Assembly: GCA_017477255.1 (NCBI GenBank)
Contig: JAFUXB010000002.1
Location: forward strand, 93,996-157,995
DNA length: 64,000 nucleotides
Origin: Bacilli bacterium
GTDB lineage: Bacteria; Bacillota_I; Bacilli_A; RFN20; CAG-826
Reading direction: 5' to 3'
The notes under the pieces are model-generated. The model made no database searches. It was not told the origin of the DNA and saw only the letters and a list, made by a program, of their open reading frames with translations. This document shows, piece after piece, positions 6,696 through 54,788 of this stretch (the stretch's first letter is position 1; every line of letters starts with the position of its first letter). The position numbers were made by a program, and so were the translations under genes.

Positions 6696-6720
6696 TTTTC
6701 TTAAAAATTTAGCAAAAATT

Positions 6721-6775
6721 TTACCCCCTTTTTTGTTTTAAAACCTCCTACTTGATATATGTAGGGACAATTTTT
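6721..6775 (+). repeat. degenerate copy (a) of the C5...G5 hairpin element
   Basis: TTACCCCCTTTTTTG...CCTACTTGATATATGTAGGGACAATTTTT aligns by eye, roughly three-quarters identical, with the - strand copies at 29879-29928 and 54716-54763. The G-run has decayed and no ATG follows. Confidence 0.6.
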
Positions 6776-6802
6776 GGAAGTTTCTACATTTTTCTTAACA
6801 TA

Positions 6803-6899
6803 GTTGCGATTTAGGTGAAAGACCAAGCCTTTTATTTCAATAAATTCACTTAAAAACTTAACACCTCAATTCAATCATCTCTAAAGCCTAAATCGCAAC
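6803..6899. repeat. 13-bp perfect inverted repeat with a 71-nt spacer
   Basis: GTTGCGATTTAGG (6803-6815) pairs with CCTAAATCGCAAC (6887-6899). The repeat lies directly upstream of the orphan ORF 6914. Confidence 0.8.
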
Positions 6900-6913
6900 C
6901 CTCCCATAAATCA

Positions 6914-7417
6914 ATGAAAAAAGAGATTATTTACAAAGTAGAGTACGATTTAAACAACAAAATTCAGAGTCAAATCGAATGGGCTGATAATTTTTTACGT
7001 AATTTTCAAATTGGAGATATTGAGCTAAAAGTTGGTCAAATTGTTTTATACAAAGAATTTTCGAAATATTTGAATATATTTTTGGGATTAAGATATGGAA
7101 TTGTTTTAGACAAAGAAATTGGCGATCAAAACAATGTGATTATTTGCCCATTAGAAATTGAGACCGTTGATAGAATTTATCCAAACGGAGTTGATATTGG
7201 AAGAATTTATGAGATAGCAAACGATAATACATGCTTGGCAATGGTCTCAAATATTAAAAAGATTTCATACATGGACATCACAAATGATGGCGAAATTTTA
7301 AATAAAAAAATCTATCTTCCTGATGAATCAGTGAAGATAATTGTCGACATTTATCGTAAATTTATGCTTAAAATCTGTGGAAAATATATCAACACTAAAA
7401 AAATTAACTATTCGTAA
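6914..7417 (+). CDS. hypothetical protein (orphan) with a possible PemK/MazF-like SH3-barrel pattern
   Basis: A 167-aa ORF with no Shine-Dalgarno, lying between the deoB terminator and the dif site. The pattern VGQIVLY...LRYGIVL...NVIICPL...TCLAMVSNIKKISYMDI resembles the MazF/PemK core. This was not verified. Confidence 0.55.
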   Translation: MKKEIIYKVEYDLNNKIQSQIEWADNFLRNFQIGDIELKVGQIVLYKEFSKYLNIFLGLRYGIVLDKEIGDQNNVIICPLEIETVDRIYPNGVDIGRIYEIANDNTCLAMVSNIKKISYMDITNDGEILNKKIYLPDESVKIIVDIYRKFMLKICGKYINTKKINYS

Positions 7418-21765: not shown

Positions 21766-22995
21766 TTAATTGTAATGATTGTCATCAAGTTTATTCTTTC
21801 TTGATGGATGTCTTAATTTTCTAATTGCTTTTGCTTCAATTTGACGAATTCTTTCACGAGTAACGCCAAATTCTTTACCAACTTCTTCAAGAGTTCTTGG
21901 TCTATTATCATCTAAACCATATCTTAATCTAAGGACTCTTTCTTCTCTATCAGTTAAATCGCTCATAACTTCATATAAAACTTCAGTTACGCCGATTTCT
22001 GAAGCATAATCTGTTGGAGAAAGTTCGGTGGTATCGCGTAAAAATTCAATTAATCTTGTGTCTTCATCTTCACCAATTGGAGTTTCAGCTGAAATTGGTT
22101 CAAGAGCGATAAGTTGAATTTCTCTAATCTTGTCTGGTGTTAAACTTCCACCCATTTCTTCACTAATTTCTTCTGGAGTTGGATCTCTTCCAAGTTTTTG
22201 AACGAGATATCTTTGAACTCTAGTAATTTTATTAATTGTTTCGACCATATGGACTGGAATACGAATTGTTCTGGCTTGGTCTGCAATTGCTCTAGTAATT
22301 GATTGACGGATCCACCATGTTGCATAAGTTGAGAACTTATAGTTCTTAGTATAGTCGAATTTATCGACAGCTTTCATTAATCCAAGGTTTCCTTCTTCGA
22401 TTAAATCTAAGAATTGCATACCACGTCCTAAATAGTGTTTTGCAATAGAAACAACAAGTCTTAAGTTAGCTGTAATTAATTTATCTTTAGCAGCTTTATC
22501 ACCTTCTAAAATACGTTTAGCAAGTTCTTGTTCTTCACTACCTTTTAATAATGGAACTTTACCCATATCTTTGAAATATTGTTTGACGCTATCGTTGATT
22601 TTTGTGTCAGAAGTTTCCATTGTAAATCTATCAATATCGATATTTGCATCGGCTTCTTCCTCTTCAGAAACTTCGTTATAATCATCATCATCAATATCAA
22701 CAACGCCTTTTTCCATATCGGCTTCATCAAATTCTAAGTCGTCTAAGTCTTCATCACCATCATCAAGTGAAGTAATTTCATAGCCAATATCTTTAAAATG
22801 ATCAATAACTTTTTGGTAATCGTCATCAGTTAAATCTAAATAGCTTGTAGCGTCAAAAAATTCGTCTTGATCAAAAGTTTTTGTCTTTTTTCCACTTTTT
22901 TCAAATTGAGCGATGATATCATCAAGTGTTTTAATATCATCACCTTCGTCAAGAATTGCATCCTCGACTTTTTCACTAGTCTTTTTTCTTCCCAT
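21766..22995 (-). CDS. sigA: RNA polymerase primary sigma factor
   Basis: An acidic N-terminal region is followed by regions 2-4 ([47 protein letters not shown]). The ribosome-binding site is GGGAGG. Confidence 0.95.
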
Positions 22996-28668: not shown

Positions 28669-29874
28669 TCATCGAAAATAATGCAAATATAAGCACTTAT
28701 AATAGCGCATATTGTTGATAATCTTATTAAAATTGATTACTTTATCAAAATTTTCTTCAATATAGATATATAAAAAGAAATGGAATAGCATGAAATTAAT
28801 TGTTAAAAATCCAGTTGTAAGCTGATAAATTAGACATAAAGAAAGAGTTAAAAGAATCAAAAAATATTTTTTAAAACTCATATAACTCACAACTTTATAG
28901 GTTTCTTGATTGATATAATTAACTTCATCTTTAAATAATTGTGTTGTTAACTTTTCAGCATTTTTAGAAACAAAATTTTCGTGTTCTGCTATTTCTTCAA
29001 TCTTAGGATTTAGAGTGGTTTTTTCATATAATTTGAAGATAATTTGAACTATAAAAATAAGTCCTAAAATTACAAAATTAAAATAGTTATTTAAGCCTAA
29101 AATTAATAGTCCAAAAAATAAAATCAAGAAGCAATTTACAAGCTCTAAAGGTGAAGAAATCATAGTAAATTTGAACTTATTCATTGGTTCAAAATATTTG
29201 TTAAATTTATTCTTCTTAAACACATAATCATCTAATAAAATAGCCTTATCGAAGTTTTTTAGTGAATTTATAGTAGATTTCTGGTACATAAATTCAAATA
29301 GAATATATAAGGCAAATAGCGAAATTGGTATAAAAACTGTGTCTGATTCAAATGAATCTAAAAATAACATTGAAGTCATTAAAAACACAAAACTAAATAT
29401 CTGAAAAACGATAGTTATAAAGACATTAAATTTAGGAACTACATCTACCTTTTTAGCTCGATATGAAGTGTAGTTTGCTTTTGAAATTTCTATTAGTTCT
29501 CCGTTCCAAATTTCCATTGCTTTTTTCTTATTTAAAAAGTAAATTCCAAGTGAAGGATCATAGATTTTAAACCCTCTTTTATTTACCTTTTTAACAAGAA
29601 CCATGTGAAAACTATCTCCTTTTTTAATAGGAATTAAAAATGGACATGGAGTTTTCCCTACAAACATCTCTTCTTTATTAATAATTCGAGACGCTGAAAG
29701 TGTTACATGTTCTTTTAAAGCATATTTCATTAAGTTGCTTAATGATGCACTTTCATCAATTGATGGTGTTGGATAATAAAGAAAGTCTTTATTCTTATTA
29801 ATAATTGCTAATAGCATTTTTACGCACGTATAGCCACAATCTTTATCTCCAAGTTGTTTAATATAATAAGTCAT
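28669..29874 (-). CDS. peptidase-C39-like domain fused to a multi-pass membrane domain, with no ATPase domain
   Basis: The N-terminus QLGDKDCGYTCVKMLL ... SFHMVLV...IYDPSLG fits the Cys/His pattern of bacteriocin-processing C39 domains. About six hydrophobic helices follow. The 401-aa length leaves no room for an ABC nucleotide-binding domain. The stop codon is TGA. Confidence 0.6.
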   Translation of the reverse strand: MTYYIKQLGDKDCGYTCVKMLLAIINKNKDFLYYPTPSIDESASLSNLMKYALKEHVTLSASRIINKEEMFVGKTPCPFLIPIKKGDSFHMVLVKKVNKRGFKIYDPSLGIYFLNKKKAMEIWNGELIEISKANYTSYRAKKVDVVPKFNVFITIVFQIFSFVFLMTSMLFLDSFESDTVFIPISLFALYILFEFMYQKSTINSLKNFDKAILLDDYVFKKNKFNKYFEPMNKFKFTMISSPLELVNCFLILFFGLLILGLNNYFNFVILGLIFIVQIIFKLYEKTTLNPKIEEIAEHENFVSKNAEKLTTQLFKDEVNYINQETYKVVSYMSFKKYFLILLTLSLCLIYQLTTGFLTINFMLFHFFLYIYIEENFDKVINFNKIINNMRYYKCLYLHYFR

Positions 29875-29878
29875 AAAA

Positions 29879-29928
29879 TTACCCCCTCACTATACAAGTA
29901 GGGTTTTTAAAGAGTAAAAAGGGGGTAA
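29879..29928 (-). repeat. C5...G5 hairpin element, copy b (5' leader of the C39-like gene)
   Basis: The 9-bp perfect arms TTACCCCCT (29879-29887) and AGGGGGTAA (29920-29928) enclose a 32-nt spacer. On the - strand the G-run (GAGGGGG) sits 7 nt before the ATG. Confidence 0.75.
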
Positions 29929-29981
29929 AAATATAAAATTATTAAAAATAATGATTAATTTTATTGTTTTTCTTTTTTCTG

Positions 29982-30007: not shown

Positions 30008-30913
30008 ATGGAAAAAATTGTACGTACTAATATCACCGGACTTGGTGATCCTCAAATAGTTTTAGAAAATAATATTTATTATTTATTTGCTACAGGCATG
30101 AATCAAGATGATTCTTATGCTTTTAGCTATTGTTATAGCGATAATTTAAGCGATTTTAAGTATGGTGGACCAATTCTACTTAAAAAAGATTCTTTTGGTG
30201 TAAGCGAATTCTGGGCTCCAGAAATTCATAAAATTAATGGTATTTATTATTTAGTTTATAGTGCAAGAGACACTAAAGGAATAATGCATGTTCAAATCGC
30301 TTCTTCTTTAAAATTAACTGGTCCTTATAAAGATTTAAAAGAAACTCCACTTTTAGAAGATGATAAATTTTCTACGATTGATGGCCACTTATTTGAAGAT
30401 AATGGAAGAATTTATTTATTTTATTCATTAGATTGCTCAACTAATATAATAAATGGAGTTCATACTAGTCAAATTTATGCTGTAGAGCTTTCTAAAGATT
30501 TAAAGAGCGTTATAAGTAAACCAACATTTATTTCTACTCCAGATCATGAATATGAATATTTTTCAGGACCAGAATGGAGATGGAATGAAGGTCCTTATGT
30601 TTTAAAACATAATAATAAATATTATTTAACTTATTCTACTAATTGCTATTGTGATAAACATTATGCTGTAGGATGTGCTGTTAGTGATAATATTTTAGGA
30701 CCATATAAAAAATATGATGATGTAATCTTATCTTATATTGATAATGAAATTAGTGGTCCAGGACATAATTCATTCTTTATTGATAAAGATGGATCACTAA
30801 AAATTTGTTATCACATTCATACTTTTATTGATAATCCTAGTGGAAATCGCAGAGCTTGTACTTCAAGAGCTTACTTTGATAAAGACGATAAACTTGTAAT
30901 TGATTATAAATAA
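30008..30913 (+). CDS. glycoside hydrolase family 43 (beta-xylosidase/arabinofuranosidase-like), no signal peptide
   Basis: Five-bladed-propeller motifs are present: GDPQIV, WAPEIHKINGIYYLVYSA, IDGHLFEDNGRIYLFYS and NEGPYVLKHNNKYYLTYS. Confidence 0.8.
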   Translation: MEKIVRTNITGLGDPQIVLENNIYYLFATGMNQDDSYAFSYCYSDNLSDFKYGGPILLKKDSFGVSEFWAPEIHKINGIYYLVYSARDTKGIMHVQIASSLKLTGPYKDLKETPLLEDDKFSTIDGHLFEDNGRIYLFYSLDCSTNIINGVHTSQIYAVELSKDLKSVISKPTFISTPDHEYEYFSGPEWRWNEGPYVLKHNNKYYLTYSTNCYCDKHYAVGCAVSDNILGPYKKYDDVILSYIDNEISGPGHNSFFIDKDGSLKICYHIHTFIDNPSGNRRACTSRAYFDKDDKLVIDYK

Positions 30914-52142: not shown

Positions 52143-54158
52143 TTATAGTATAAATAAATTAAATTTATAAGATATTGTGCCTTCTAAATCAGTTCTTCTA
52201 TATCTAATATTTAATCGATTTAAATTATTAATGACTTCTTCATGTGGATGTTTGAATTTATTCTTATATCCACACGATATAATCGCCACATTTGGGTCTA
52301 AGGTTTTAAGAAATTCATAACTTGATGATGTTGAACTTCCATGATGTCCCAATTTTAAGATGTCTACGTCTATTTTTGTATTCTTTATAATTTCTGCTTC
52401 TACACTTTTAGAAGCATCACCCATTAATAAAATTTTTTGACTCAAAAGTTTGAAATAAAGTACTAAACTTTTATCGTTTTCATCACTTAATTCATTCCAA
52501 TAATGATTAAGATTATTAAAATCAAAATACTTAGTTTTAATAGGAAATTGTGCGTTATAATCGATAATTTCTTTAACTTTAAAATTTGATTTTAAAGAAT
52601 TTAATGCTCCAAAATGATCATAATCATAATGTGTTATAAAACAATAATCAATATCGTAGATTCGGTTCTTTCTTAAAAACGGTATTAAACTGTTTTTAGC
52701 TAAATCATAATTAACAATACCCCCTGTATCTACTAGAATCGTTTCGTTTTTATATCTTATTAAAGTTGAATCTCCTTGTCCTACATTAATAAACGTGATT
52801 TCACAAGTCATTAATTGTTCGATTGGTAAACAATATAATGCAAAACTTAATGTAGAAACTAAACCTATATTTAAATAAAGCCTTTTAAAATTAATTTCTC
52901 TAAAGTAAAAATATAGGCTAAATAATACATAGAATACAATATAACCTAGCTGCTTAAATGCAGGTAAATTAATTGATAAAAAATCTAGTTCTATTTTATT
53001 TAAGAAGATTAACAAATGATAAATAAGATCTTCTAAAAAACTTAGATGTAATCCATAAAAACTTACGATGTTTATCACAAAAATTCCCTTAAAAACATCT
53101 ACAAATAAAGTATTTAATACTAGTCTTAAAATGTTAAATGAATTATAAAATTCTATTGAGAAAGGAAGGAATAATAAAATCGTGAATGAATTCATTTTTA
53201 AGCGCTTTTTAAGCCGATTTTTGTCAAATAGGTATAAATGACCAAGTTCCTTAAAAACCATGAAAATTAAACTTAAAATAAAGGATAATGAATAGATTAA
53301 ATAATGATTGAGCAATAAAAAGATAATCAATATTAAATTTTTAAGGTTAAATCGATCCACTTCTTTTTCTAAAAATATAATTCCAATTATAAAGAAAATA
53401 ACTGTTTTAATTACGACAAATTTCGAGATATTTATAAATATGTATGGAGTTAATAAAAGTAAAGATAAAATTCTAGATAATTTATCACTTATAAATTTTG
53501 CTAAAAATTTAGAAACACTGTATAAAAGGAAATTTAACAATACACCAGTAACAGATAGAACGTTAGCTAGCATAAATTCACTTTTTAAATCACTGATGTA
53601 ATCGCTATTTTCGTTAAATAATATAGCTCTAGCTAAATCTTTAGTTTCTTCATGATGAAATTTAGATAATATTTCACTTTTAAATCCATCTATATTAATA
53701 GGTAAGGAGAATATTTTAGTAAAATTATTTATTTTTAGACTAGATTCAATCCCATTTTTATTAAGATAGCCTTTAAAGTCAAATGAACTTTCGTATGTTG
53801 TAAAAGTTAATTCAGCCCTATCTCCACTAAAACAAATTAAATCAAATAACTTTAAATCGTCTTTATTATAAACATAAAATTTCTCTTTAAATGTTCTTAA
53901 AATTACGTAATTTTCACTTGTTCTAACTACTAACCCATAATTAGAAGTTAAATTGTTTTCTTTAATCTTTATTACACTAAATAAGATCCCTATTATTAGA
54001 CAAATAATCGACAGTATTATTACTACTTTATTTTTCTTTATTTTCCATATAAATAGGAAAATGATGCAAATTAAAAGAATTACTGTAATTAAAACGTTTT
54101 TAATATCAAGTAATAATAAGCCTAAAATTAGACTTAATAATACTGTTAAAAAGCTCAT
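52143..54158 (-). CDS. comEC: DNA internalization competence protein ComEC/Rec2
   Basis: It is polytopic with a C-terminal MBL domain (VGQGDSTLI, HYDYDHFG). Confidence 0.85.
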   Translation of the reverse strand: MSFLTVLLSLILGLLLLDIKNVLITVILLICIIFLFIWKIKKNKVVIILSIICLIIGILFSVIKIKENNLTSNYGLVVRTSENYVILRTFKEKFYVYNKDDLKLFDLICFSGDRAELTFTTYESSFDFKGYLNKNGIESSLKINNFTKIFSLPINIDGFKSEILSKFHHEETKDLARAILFNENSDYISDLKSEFMLANVLSVTGVLLNFLLYSVSKFLAKFISDKLSRILSLLLLTPYIFINISKFVVIKTVIFFIIGIIFLEKEVDRFNLKNLILIIFLLLNHYLIYSLSFILSLIFMVFKELGHLYLFDKNRLKKRLKMNSFTILLFLPFSIEFYNSFNILRLVLNTLFVDVFKGIFVINIVSFYGLHLSFLEDLIYHLLIFLNKIELDFLSINLPAFKQLGYIVFYVLFSLYFYFREINFKRLYLNIGLVSTLSFALYCLPIEQLMTCEITFINVGQGDSTLIRYKNETILVDTGGIVNYDLAKNSLIPFLRKNRIYDIDYCFITHYDYDHFGALNSLKSNFKVKEIIDYNAQFPIKTKYFDFNNLNHYWNELSDENDKSLVLYFKLLSQKILLMGDASKSVEAEIIKNTKIDVDILKLGHHGSSTSSSYEFLKTLDPNVAIISCGYKNKFKHPHEEVINNLNRLNIRYRRTDLEGTISYKFNLFIL

Positions 54159-54709
54159 TAGGCATCAGCTAAAATTACAAAATTTCTGAGTTTTGTATAT
54201 GTTGCATTACCAATTCCGCTAACTTTCATTAATGTTTCAAGTGTCTTAAATAAGCCACTGCTTGTACGATAATCAATGATAGCTTTACTAATATTTGTTC
54301 CGATTCCATCGATGAAAGTTAATTCTTCTGGATCAGTGTAAGTATTAATATTTACTTTTTGAATCTCATCAACACTACAAACATCATTTGGATTATAACG
54401 TGGTGGAATATAATAAGTTACATTCTTTTCTAAAACTGCATCAGTAAAATAAGCTCTAGAATCTGCTTTATTAGTAACCCCGCCTGCTTTTTCGATCAAG
54501 TCACCCATGGTTGCATTATCATCTAATAAATAATTACCAGGATTTAAAATATAGCCTGTAATACCTATTGAGTTTCTTGCACCATCGGTTACTTCTTGTG
54601 TTGTTTGTGCAGTTTGCATAATAGAACCAGAATCAATGAATTTTAAAGCCACTAGTCCTACTAATGTTGCAATAACAACACCAATAATGATTTTGATTGT
54701 TATACTCAT
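54158..54709 (-). CDS. comEA: competence protein ComEA (helix-hairpin-helix DNA receptor)
   Basis: I place the start at MSITIKII (54709), 8 nt after GAGGGGG. It has an N-terminal transmembrane helix and a C-terminal HhH pair (IDGIGTNISKAI...VSGIGNATY). The ORF-track TTG start at 54733 lies inside the hairpin element. Confidence 0.85.
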   Translation of the reverse strand: MSITIKIIIGVVIATLVGLVALKFIDSGSIMQTAQTTQEVTDGARNSIGITGYILNPGNYLLDDNATMGDLIEKAGGVTNKADSRAYFTDAVLEKNVTYYIPPRYNPNDVCSVDEIQKVNINTYTDPEELTFIDGIGTNISKAIIDYRTSSGLFKTLETLMKVSGIGNATYTKLRNFVILADA

Positions 54710-54715
54710 AAATAA

Positions 54716-54763
54716 AACCCCCTCTATATACAAGTTTGGAAACTTTGTATAAAAAGGGGGGTT
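54716..54763 (-). repeat. C5...G5 hairpin element, copy c (greA terminator-like, overlapping the comEA ribosome-binding site)
   Basis: The - strand reads AACCCCCCTTTTTATACAAAGTTTCCAAACTTGTATATAGAGGGGGTT, followed by TTTATTTATG. It forms a long imperfect hairpin and is homologous to copy b. Confidence 0.75.
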
Positions 54764-54788
54764 AAATTTAAAAATATTAAAATTAATG

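Follow-up and report, generated by a model that had tools for sequence, protein, structure and literature searches.

Upstream of a gene for a C39-peptidase-domain membrane protein, on the minus strand of a 64,000-nt window of genomic DNA (C2:93996-157995 of the source genome, G000), a run of C and a run of G can pair so that the Shine-Dalgarno (SD) sequence forms the 3' arm of a hairpin, which raises the question of what a gene gains from a structure that would shut its own ribosome-binding site. The first-pass annotation described this arrangement as one of three copies (a, b and c) of an element with the look of a terminator or attenuator and, speculatively, with a link to competence. Its description of copy b, the copy at this locus, is exact (a perfect 9-bp stem around a 32-nt loop, then TTTT-ATG), and the spacing of 7-8 nt that it gave between SD and start codon is 7 nt in copy b and 8 nt in copy c.

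A homologous family in front of competence and recombination genes

The homology of the three copies stood, but their number did not: a genome-wide search found eight copies in G000, namely seven with a G-run and copy a, in which there is no G-run (Table 1). Of the seven C5/G5 runs in the window, all but one (at 52720) fall within copies a-c, which the first-pass annotation had named as the only places where it saw such runs; the number of runs is not above chance (7 found vs 7.3 expected), whereas their arrangement is. The G000 copies share 79% mean column identity over ~62 nt, with the consensus AAAATTTTACCCCCTTTTT-N~10-AAAACCTCCTACTTGTATAGTGAGGGGG-N4-8-ATG, and ACTTG is invariant in 8/8 of them, as is CTTG in 29 aligned copies from the subclade of relatives delineated below.

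Table 1. Element copies of the source genome, their parts and adjoining genes. Positions without a prefix are those of the window; C1, C2 and C6 denote contigs.
Feature	Position	Strand	Upstream neighbour and gap	Remarks
Copy a	6720..6768	+	terminator	C-run 6724-6728; inner CCTCC 6744-6748; CTTG 6751-6754; core CTTGATAT 6751-6758; leader ~150 nt
167-aa gene served by copy a	6914..7417	+		weakly supported MazF/PemK-like fold
Copy b, 5' arm TTACCCCCT	29920..29928	-	divergent gene	C-run 29921-29925; also box 1, -35-like
Copy b, inner C-rich tract CCCTAC	29898..29903	-		second anti-SD-like partner; CCTCCTAC in other copies
Copy b, core CTACTTGTATAGT	29889..29901	-		box 2, -10-like; 3' part of hairpin loop
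Copy b, 3' arm AGGGGGTAA	29879..29887	-		Shine-Dalgarno; G-run 29882-29886
Copy b, U-rich SD-to-ATG spacer TAATTTT	29875..29881	-		
Copy b, ATG	29874-29872	-		start of the C39 gene
C39-peptidase-domain membrane protein, 400 aa under code 11	28672..29874	-		Pfam PF03412 Peptidase_C39, E 1.8e-12
GH43 gene	30008-30913			divergent, upstream of copy b
Copy c, C-box TTAACCCCCC	54756..54765	-	greA-like gene, 27 nt	5' arm, box 1; C-run 54761-54756
Copy c, core ACTTGTATATAG	54724..54735	-		also pairs with upstream TATACAAAGT
Copy c, G-run SD and spacer TTTTATTT	54710..54722	-		G-run SD 54718-54722; ATG 54709-54707
comEA, served by copy c	54158-54709	-		Pfam HHH_3, SLBB
comEC (followed by holA), served by copy c	52143-54158	-		
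recA copy	C1:81093		162-aa ORF, 24 nt	
ABC ATPase/permease pair copy	C1:89590		490-aa ORF, 25 nt	
65-aa double-glycine-type peptide copy	C2:79009		valS, 7 nt	
dprA copy	C6:13380		rnhB-like gene, 15 nt	
Orphan copy	C2:173307-173350	-	between two terminators	no ORF

Pfam assignments bear out that copies b and c precede the C39 gene and comEA, and the competence link that had been proposed from these two genes gained breadth, with recA and dprA added by the genome search and comFA, a comG-like operon and rpsF added by relatives. Copies in front of recA, dprA and comEA-comEC mark the served genes as a competence and recombination regulon, a functionally coherent set towards which the copies are always oriented. 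The element marks all DNA-uptake and recombination genes found in G000. A REP- or MITE-like dispersed repeat was rejected because the orientation and position of the copies track genes: every copy points at a downstream gene, and the orphan at a terminator.

The G000 assembly comprises 837 kb at 28% G+C and is 53% complete; its contigs C3 and C7 carry identical gene starts in opposite orientation, which points to assembly redundancy and hence to a true unique size below 837 kb. Genetic code 4 was rejected for this genome in favour of code 11: no in-frame TGA occurs in relatives, so the in-frame 'W' tails that code 4 appends to dprA and the C39 gene are artefacts. The closest named relatives of its RecA belong to 'uncultured Mollicutes bacterium' and 'Candidatus Onthovivens' MAGs, and in the literature searched no paper linking either name to competence was found.

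An exact motif search in genomes of the same genus gave almost no matches, so the element was traced through orthologous upstream regions and a sequence model. A C-run together with the core occurs in many copies in G000, G011, G013, G023, G041, G046, G054, G059 and G072, which we refer to as the C-run subclade. For comparison, ~60 flanked copies were fetched from seven sister genomes, and counts below are over 66 copies in 8 genomes; the sequence model finds 7-14 copies per genome in the seven sisters. The genes served there are recA, comEA, comFA, dprA and those for the ABC ATPase, the C39 protein and a 60-aa peptide, and further rpsF, a ComGA-like operon, a thioredoxin-like lipoprotein gene, a MazF-like gene and TnpB-like genes. 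In six loci of relatives (L097, L109, L120, L129, L143 and L154) the element stands 150-180 nt upstream of rpsF (S6), before a conserved leader, and SSB induction through rpsF-ssb-rpsR is presumed in these relatives.

In four relatives (G011:C6 14050-16355, G059:C17 2777-5071, G023:C9 18940-21259 and G013:C67 3259-5538) the element heads an operon in which a gene for a ~345-aa secreted protein is followed by one for a T2SSE (ComGA-like) ATPase; this operon resembles a comG-type pilus operon and is absent from the assembled half of G000. The idea that the 65-aa peptide, the C39 protein and the ABC pair substitute for a missing competence pilus was dropped because relatives have the ComGA-like ATPase operon under the same element. 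The 65-aa ORF (C2:79058-79255, +) encodes a double-glycine-type leader, MTRVQLTEKELDEFKVG, with D as the next residue, and a conserved tail PGGW(S/T)FQWK, and homologs of 60-61 aa stand under the same element in five sister genomes; the peptide is likely a substrate of the C39-domain membrane protein and ABC pair of the regulon.

Two-box geometry and pairing of the ribosome-binding site

The end of the C-run lies 21-22 nt from CTTG in 61 of the 66 copies from 8 genomes; in four others the distance is 23 nt, and in one the CTTG was mis-anchored. The consensus reads ACCCCC-N21-22-CTTGTAT, with the core CnACTTGTAT. Across 15 genomes of the genus, identity is much higher within genomes than between them at -27..-22 and -5..-1 relative to CTTG, outlining two species-specific boxes whose centres are 23 bp apart, which is sigma-70 geometry, and the C-run of copy b (-27..-23 from the C of CTTG) occupies the position of the upstream box. 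Specifically, the C-box is invariant within each genome whatever the SD, and its tail is species-specific (CCCCCTTTTT in G000, CCCCCCAACAAGT in G011 and G059, CCCCCCAACTTTT in G072 and CCCCCCACTACC in G041), dialects of box 1 including CCCCCTTTTT, CCCCCCAAC, CCCCCCACTACC and TAGAGRGATAAA. The core, as cTTCTTGTAT, is kept through the genus in front of recA, at 5-8 nt from the SD. Where the element lies 100-200 nt ahead of rpsF or the MazF-like gene, it is directly followed by neither SD nor ATG. In four SD-less copies, belonging to comFA of G059, two secreted proteins and one lipoprotein, all with N-termini that match their orthologs, the A of the ATG, counted from the C of CTTG, falls at +9 to +12, in the window predicted for +1.

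The rigid spacing and the species specificity of the two boxes argue that the C-run is a -35-like box, and if it is, the 5' arm should be missing from competence-specific mRNA, whose start would fall immediately ahead of the SD. Judged from the promoter geometry, +1 would lie about 8-11 nt beyond the C of CTTG; in G000 this is 1-4 nt before the G-run, corresponding to about 29887-29890 (-) in copy b and about 54723-54726 in copy c, and in the SD-less copies it coincides with the ATG. A TATAGT hexamer just 3' of CTTG offers an alternative sigma-A -10 and would put +1 after the SD. The reading of the element as a transcribed sensing leader or attenuator is improbable after this comparison, as the C-run appears to act as a -35-like box and is present even where SD and ATG are missing.

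The occlusion of the SD that had been predicted from the hairpin recurs throughout the family in G000. The MFE fold of 7/7 G-run copies contains the C-run:G-run stem, at -10.9 to -21.6 kcal/mol (copy b, -16.4 kcal/mol, z -2.55; copy c, a near-continuous hairpin, -21.6 kcal/mol, z -4.44), and that of copy a does not take it. Among 395 SD-bearing gene starts in G000, the six element genes with an adjacent start codon hold ranks 1-5 and 8 for pairing between the SD and upstream sequence (pairing energies here and below are duplex estimates), and a G5 SD is found in 6/6 of them versus ~1.4% of non-regulon genes. In read-through RNA the modelled probability of an unpaired SD is 0.00 for all six genes, and in RNA from the predicted start it is 0.22-0.96. 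RNA modelled to start between the C-run and the inner tract still has a mostly paired SD in most copies, in keeping with the earlier proposal that the inner CCCTAC (or CCTCC) is a second possible partner of the G-run.

Comparison with relatives indicates that this pairing is selected. An SD with G4 or more occurs in 7/7 G000 copies and 22/58 copies of relatives versus ~3% of other genes, and is kept by the orthologs of recA in 7/8 genomes and of the ABC gene in 4/5. Within the C-run subclade, arms pair better with their own partner than with permuted ones (p=0.002 within genome, p=0.007 across genomes). Outside it the C-run is absent, and an anti-SD tract that co-varies with the SD lies in the promoter spacer or overlaps the core; there, dG <= -10 kcal/mol is reached by 80% of comEA leaders (p=3.5e-11) and 44% of dprA leaders (p=8e-5) versus 6% of 108 control genes taken from the same loci as the regulon leaders, recA showing no excess pairing, and own partners beat 5000/5000 partner permutations. 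Across the genus and the order, the arms are thus conserved through compensatory changes at comEA and dprA: pairs that differ between genomes include CCTCCAT/ATGGAGG and, at comEA, AAAAACCTCCAT/ATGGAGGTTTTT (G006), TACCTCCT/AGGAGGTA (G007), CCTCC/GGAGG (G036), CTCTCAC/GTGAGAG (G039) and CCCTTAT/ATAAGGG (G025), with ATCTCC/GGAGAT at dprA of G036. Of the regulon genes, 50% have a T-run 3' of the SD, versus 9% of controls (p=3e-10). Conserved compensating arms and T-run enrichment together mean that SD occlusion and the U-run are real and old features, not an accident of G000.

The terminator-like look noted in the first-pass annotation is partly upheld, in the enrichment of T-runs; an attenuator, like a transcribed sensing leader, is improbable. 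U4 directly follows the stem in only 3/7 G000 copies, and a consensus terminator scan called no terminator at copies b and c, as is expected of the 32-nt loop in copy b. An RNA thermometer was rejected by inference from stems with five G-C pairs and fold energies of -14 to -22 kcal/mol. Likewise, a known cis-regulatory RNA family was rejected, since Rfam gave no gathering-level match in the window and its permissive matches (E <= 10) were at chance level (E >= 1.4).

A putative promoter nested in a fold-back hairpin, and rival readings

We consider it probable that the element is a competence/recombination promoter nested in a terminator-like, SD-locking hairpin, that is, a case of fold-back inhibition. 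The cassette would run from box 1 (ACCCCC, -35-like) through a 21-22-nt spacer, often with CCTCC, to box 2 (CnACTTGTAT, -10-like), and on through the predicted start 8-11 nt past the C of CTTG, the SD GAGGGGG and a U-rich spacer to the ATG. Transcription would be initiated within the loop by a putative activator or alternative sigma factor, and the resulting mRNA, free of the 5' arm and beginning almost at the SD, would be translated. RNA entering from upstream, whether by read-through from an abutting housekeeping gene or from spurious starts in AT-rich DNA, would instead carry the C-run and often the inner CCTCC too, and the stem would bury the SD; stem and U-run may also terminate transcription. 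With upstream RNA locked and the promoter's own mRNA free, the hairpin would be an insulator that silences the competence genes until their own promoter fires. In the G000 lineage an ancestral anti-SD role would have merged with the -35 box, the SD changing from GGAGG to GGGGG to match.

The genomic context of the copies bears on where such upstream RNA could come from. A co-directional upstream ORF adjoins 47/66 copies, with a gap of <= 55 nt and no terminator; in G000 five of the seven G-run copies adjoin a co-directional upstream gene, and the orphan and copy a follow terminators. The G-run is present in 51% of abutting copies vs 26% of the rest, a trend only (p=0.10), and exposure to read-through was not retained as the explanation of which copies carry it. 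Many comEA copies of relatives sit behind a canonical terminator yet keep the hairpin, and together with copy b, whose neighbour is divergent, they indicate that read-through from the neighbouring gene is not the sole selective reason for it.

A PF04542 scan and tblastn with the small sigma factors of relatives revealed no second sigma factor in the assembled 53% of G000, only RpoD. The assembled genome matches sigma-70 region 2 at one place only, 21766-22995 (-) of the window. Genes of the ECF-like or small sigma-70 family (165-190 aa) occur in some relatives, and G020 and G072 show only RpoD.

It is unlikely that the element is instead a transcribed riboregulator, in which a 5' leader made from an upstream promoter would fold into a hairpin that blocks translation or terminates transcription, until a competence factor acting in trans (an RNA-binding protein or small RNA) recognised the loop sequence CUUGUAU and opened it. 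Such a device would account for the conserved loop, the variable compensating stems and the U-run after the stem, for the retention of hairpins downstream of canonical terminators and between divergent genes, and for AT-rich -10-like hexamers just upstream of the C-run. It would leave unexplained that the C-box is invariant in 36/58 copies of relatives that have no matching G-run, and that the spacing to the core is held at 21-22 nt between two species-specific boxes with sigma-70 geometry. Moreover, loop size and the position of the 5' arm vary widely between genomes, from the -35 to overlapping the core, which does not suit recognition by one specific RNA-protein complex; there are SD-less or leaderless copies, and others with long leaders and no SD to regulate; many begin 0-10 nt past the upstream stop codon, which leaves no room for a shared promoter; and there is no Rfam family match. 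We also regard as rather unlikely the version in which the hairpin is an active post-transcriptional competence switch, its loop, (A/U)UCUUGUAU, being bound by an undescribed RNA-binding regulator or small RNA that opens the terminator-like, SD-locking stem of each late competence gene. Induction would then proceed through anti-termination and translational unlocking of read-through RNA, with no sigma factor, and the ~40-nt product of the orphan copy could possibly be the trans-acting RNA, with a G-run arm complementary to the other 5' arms.

That the hairpin is mainly the intrinsic terminator of the upstream gene, overlapping promoter and SD by chance and with no separate role in masking the SD, seems quite improbable. 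T-runs are indeed enriched after the SD, most copies abut an upstream gene that has no other terminator, and the comEA copy forms a near-continuous 20-bp hairpin followed by UUUUAUUU; against this, loops of ~30 nt are atypical beside the usual 3-8 nt and the scan finds no terminator, only some G000 copies have U4 directly after the stem (the 3/7 given above), the 3' arm is always the SD itself and not any nearby sequence, and the hairpin persists behind separate terminators. That the 5' arm often lies 0-15 nt past the stop codon of the upstream gene would suit translational coupling, with the SD locked by sequence beside that stop and freed by ribosomes ending the upstream gene, a very improbable reading given that copy b is divergent, that the orphan and many comEA copies lie behind terminators, and that the arms of the recA, ABC and comEA copies of G000 lie 24-27 nt past the stop, beyond the reach of a terminating ribosome; such coupling would also make the competence genes constitutive. 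Hardly credible is a DNA operator for a dimeric regulator with half-sites CCCCC and GGGGG, as the perfect 9-bp inverted repeat at copy b could suggest: the half-sites are ~38 bp apart, the 3' half is missing in most copies of relatives while the C-box stays, and the arms of other genomes have unrelated sequences, shifted positions and asymmetric interruptions, and complementarity of the G-U type counts.

Relation to known systems and further observations

By analogy, the putative nested promoter stands closest in function to two regulons, that of sigma-20 (MG428) and that of the streptococcal ComX cin-box. Mycoplasma genitalium uses the promoter TTGTCA-N18/19-ATTWAT for its sigma-20 recombination regulon, and the boxes of M. 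pneumoniae are TTGGCR/ATTYAT, so that the promoter dialect differs between sister species (PMC4446450). M. genitalium is a genome-reduced relative of Bacilli. Its sigma-20 promoters, like the element described here, immediately precede genes for RecA, a ComEC-like protein and an ABC transporter (in the case of sigma-20 the ATG is only 8-17 nt away), and have boxes that differ between sister species. Unlike them, the element has boxes of unrelated sequence (CCCCC ... CnACTTGTAT) and is wrapped in an SD-occluding hairpin, of which none is reported for sigma-20 promoters, and no MG428-like factor was found in assembled G000.

In streptococci, ComX/SigX recognises the cin-box TACGAATA at late-competence promoters. 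The likeness of these, and of SigH-type competence promoters, to the element lies in a single promoter class for comEA/EC, comFA, comG, dprA, recA, ssb and peptide or bacteriocin export; the differences are the sequence itself, the strong species-specific -35-like box, the ultra-short leader and the hairpin wrapped around the cassette. The element consensus contains no match to the cin-box TACGAATA or to TTGTCA-N18/19-ATTWAT.

The closest parallel for the hairpin comes from transposons. Fold-back inhibition shields the transposase gene of IS10/Tn10, and also of IS50 and IS3, against external promoters (Davis, Simons and Kleckner 1985, pmid 2416461, as cited in PMC13181058). As that summary presents IS10, entering transcripts have their SD and start codon sequestered by sequence upstream of the element's own transcription start, and the element's own transcript lacks that arm, both of which would apply here with a predicted start site. 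Unlike IS10, the present case concerns a chromosomal regulon of ~10-14 operons and not a transposase, and the 5' arm is a -35 box or promoter spacer, with a U-run that gives a terminator-like look. The stem that buries the SD and the U-run that follows also resemble translational riboswitches, RNA thermometers and attenuators; unlike these SD-sequestering cis-RNAs, the element has no Rfam match, no conserved ligand-pocket architecture and five G-C pairs that are not heat-labile, and its 5' arm probably lies outside the regulated transcript.

What emerges is a complete natural-competence regulon, not described before, in gut Bacilli that are uncultured and genome-reduced. It suggests a compact design rule: genes are packed directly behind housekeeping genes, and the ribosome-binding site doubles as the 3' arm of the hairpin in which the promoter is nested, such that only transcripts born at their own promoter would be readable. 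Fold-back inhibition is known for a few transposases; its use by a whole regulon, with conservation across an order, would be new. The motif is a simple predictor of competence genes in these MAGs, and a fold-back cassette would be useful for insulating synthetic circuits.

Copy a was matched by sequence model R1 (E 0.006), and homologs of its 167-aa gene in six sister genomes carry the element in 6/6 cases, five with leaders of 99-203 nt and the one in G072 directly; with its leader of ~150 nt, copy a therefore counts as a promoter copy and is not dead. The 167-aa protein has no Pfam or PDB sequence match, and the protein database returned only itself; its weak AF2 model (pLDDT 60) resembles MazF/PemK/CcdB and CptN toxins, and it was accordingly set aside as a candidate regulator, a MazF-like fold not being that of a sigma factor. 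In the leader (within 6755-7417, +) a 13-bp long-range stem, fold z -3.7, joins GTTGCGATTTAGG (~6802-6814) and CCTAAATCGCAAC (~6887-6899). In G023 and G013 this stem is replaced by a different sequence, GACTGTAGAT...ATCTACAGTC; the region may be a structured leader or else act as an RNA antitoxin. Past the predicted start at copy a there is also a small hairpin with a U-run.

The orphan copy lies between the terminator of a gene for a 177-aa membrane protein and the bidirectional terminator of convergent thrS. Its predicted RNA of ~40 nt, GAAGGGGUAAAAAUAAAACCCACAUUUCUGUGGGUU, is complementary in its 5' part to the C-box arms of other copies, and could be a small RNA or a relic.

Among non-regulon genes of G000, the upstream region at C3:23661 (-) ranks 6/395 for SD occlusion owing to a strong SD-adjacent palindrome, AGAGGAGAGGTAACCCCTCTCCTCTTTAGGAGG, which is probably an upstream terminator touching the SD. 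The upstream regions at C1:2929 and C2:5887 share a motif, GAGATTTAGGGGGTTTT, which is a different G5-containing repeat. Two loci of relatives, L103 in G059 and L125 in G072, have TnpB/IS605 OrfB-like genes that use the competence element as their promoter.
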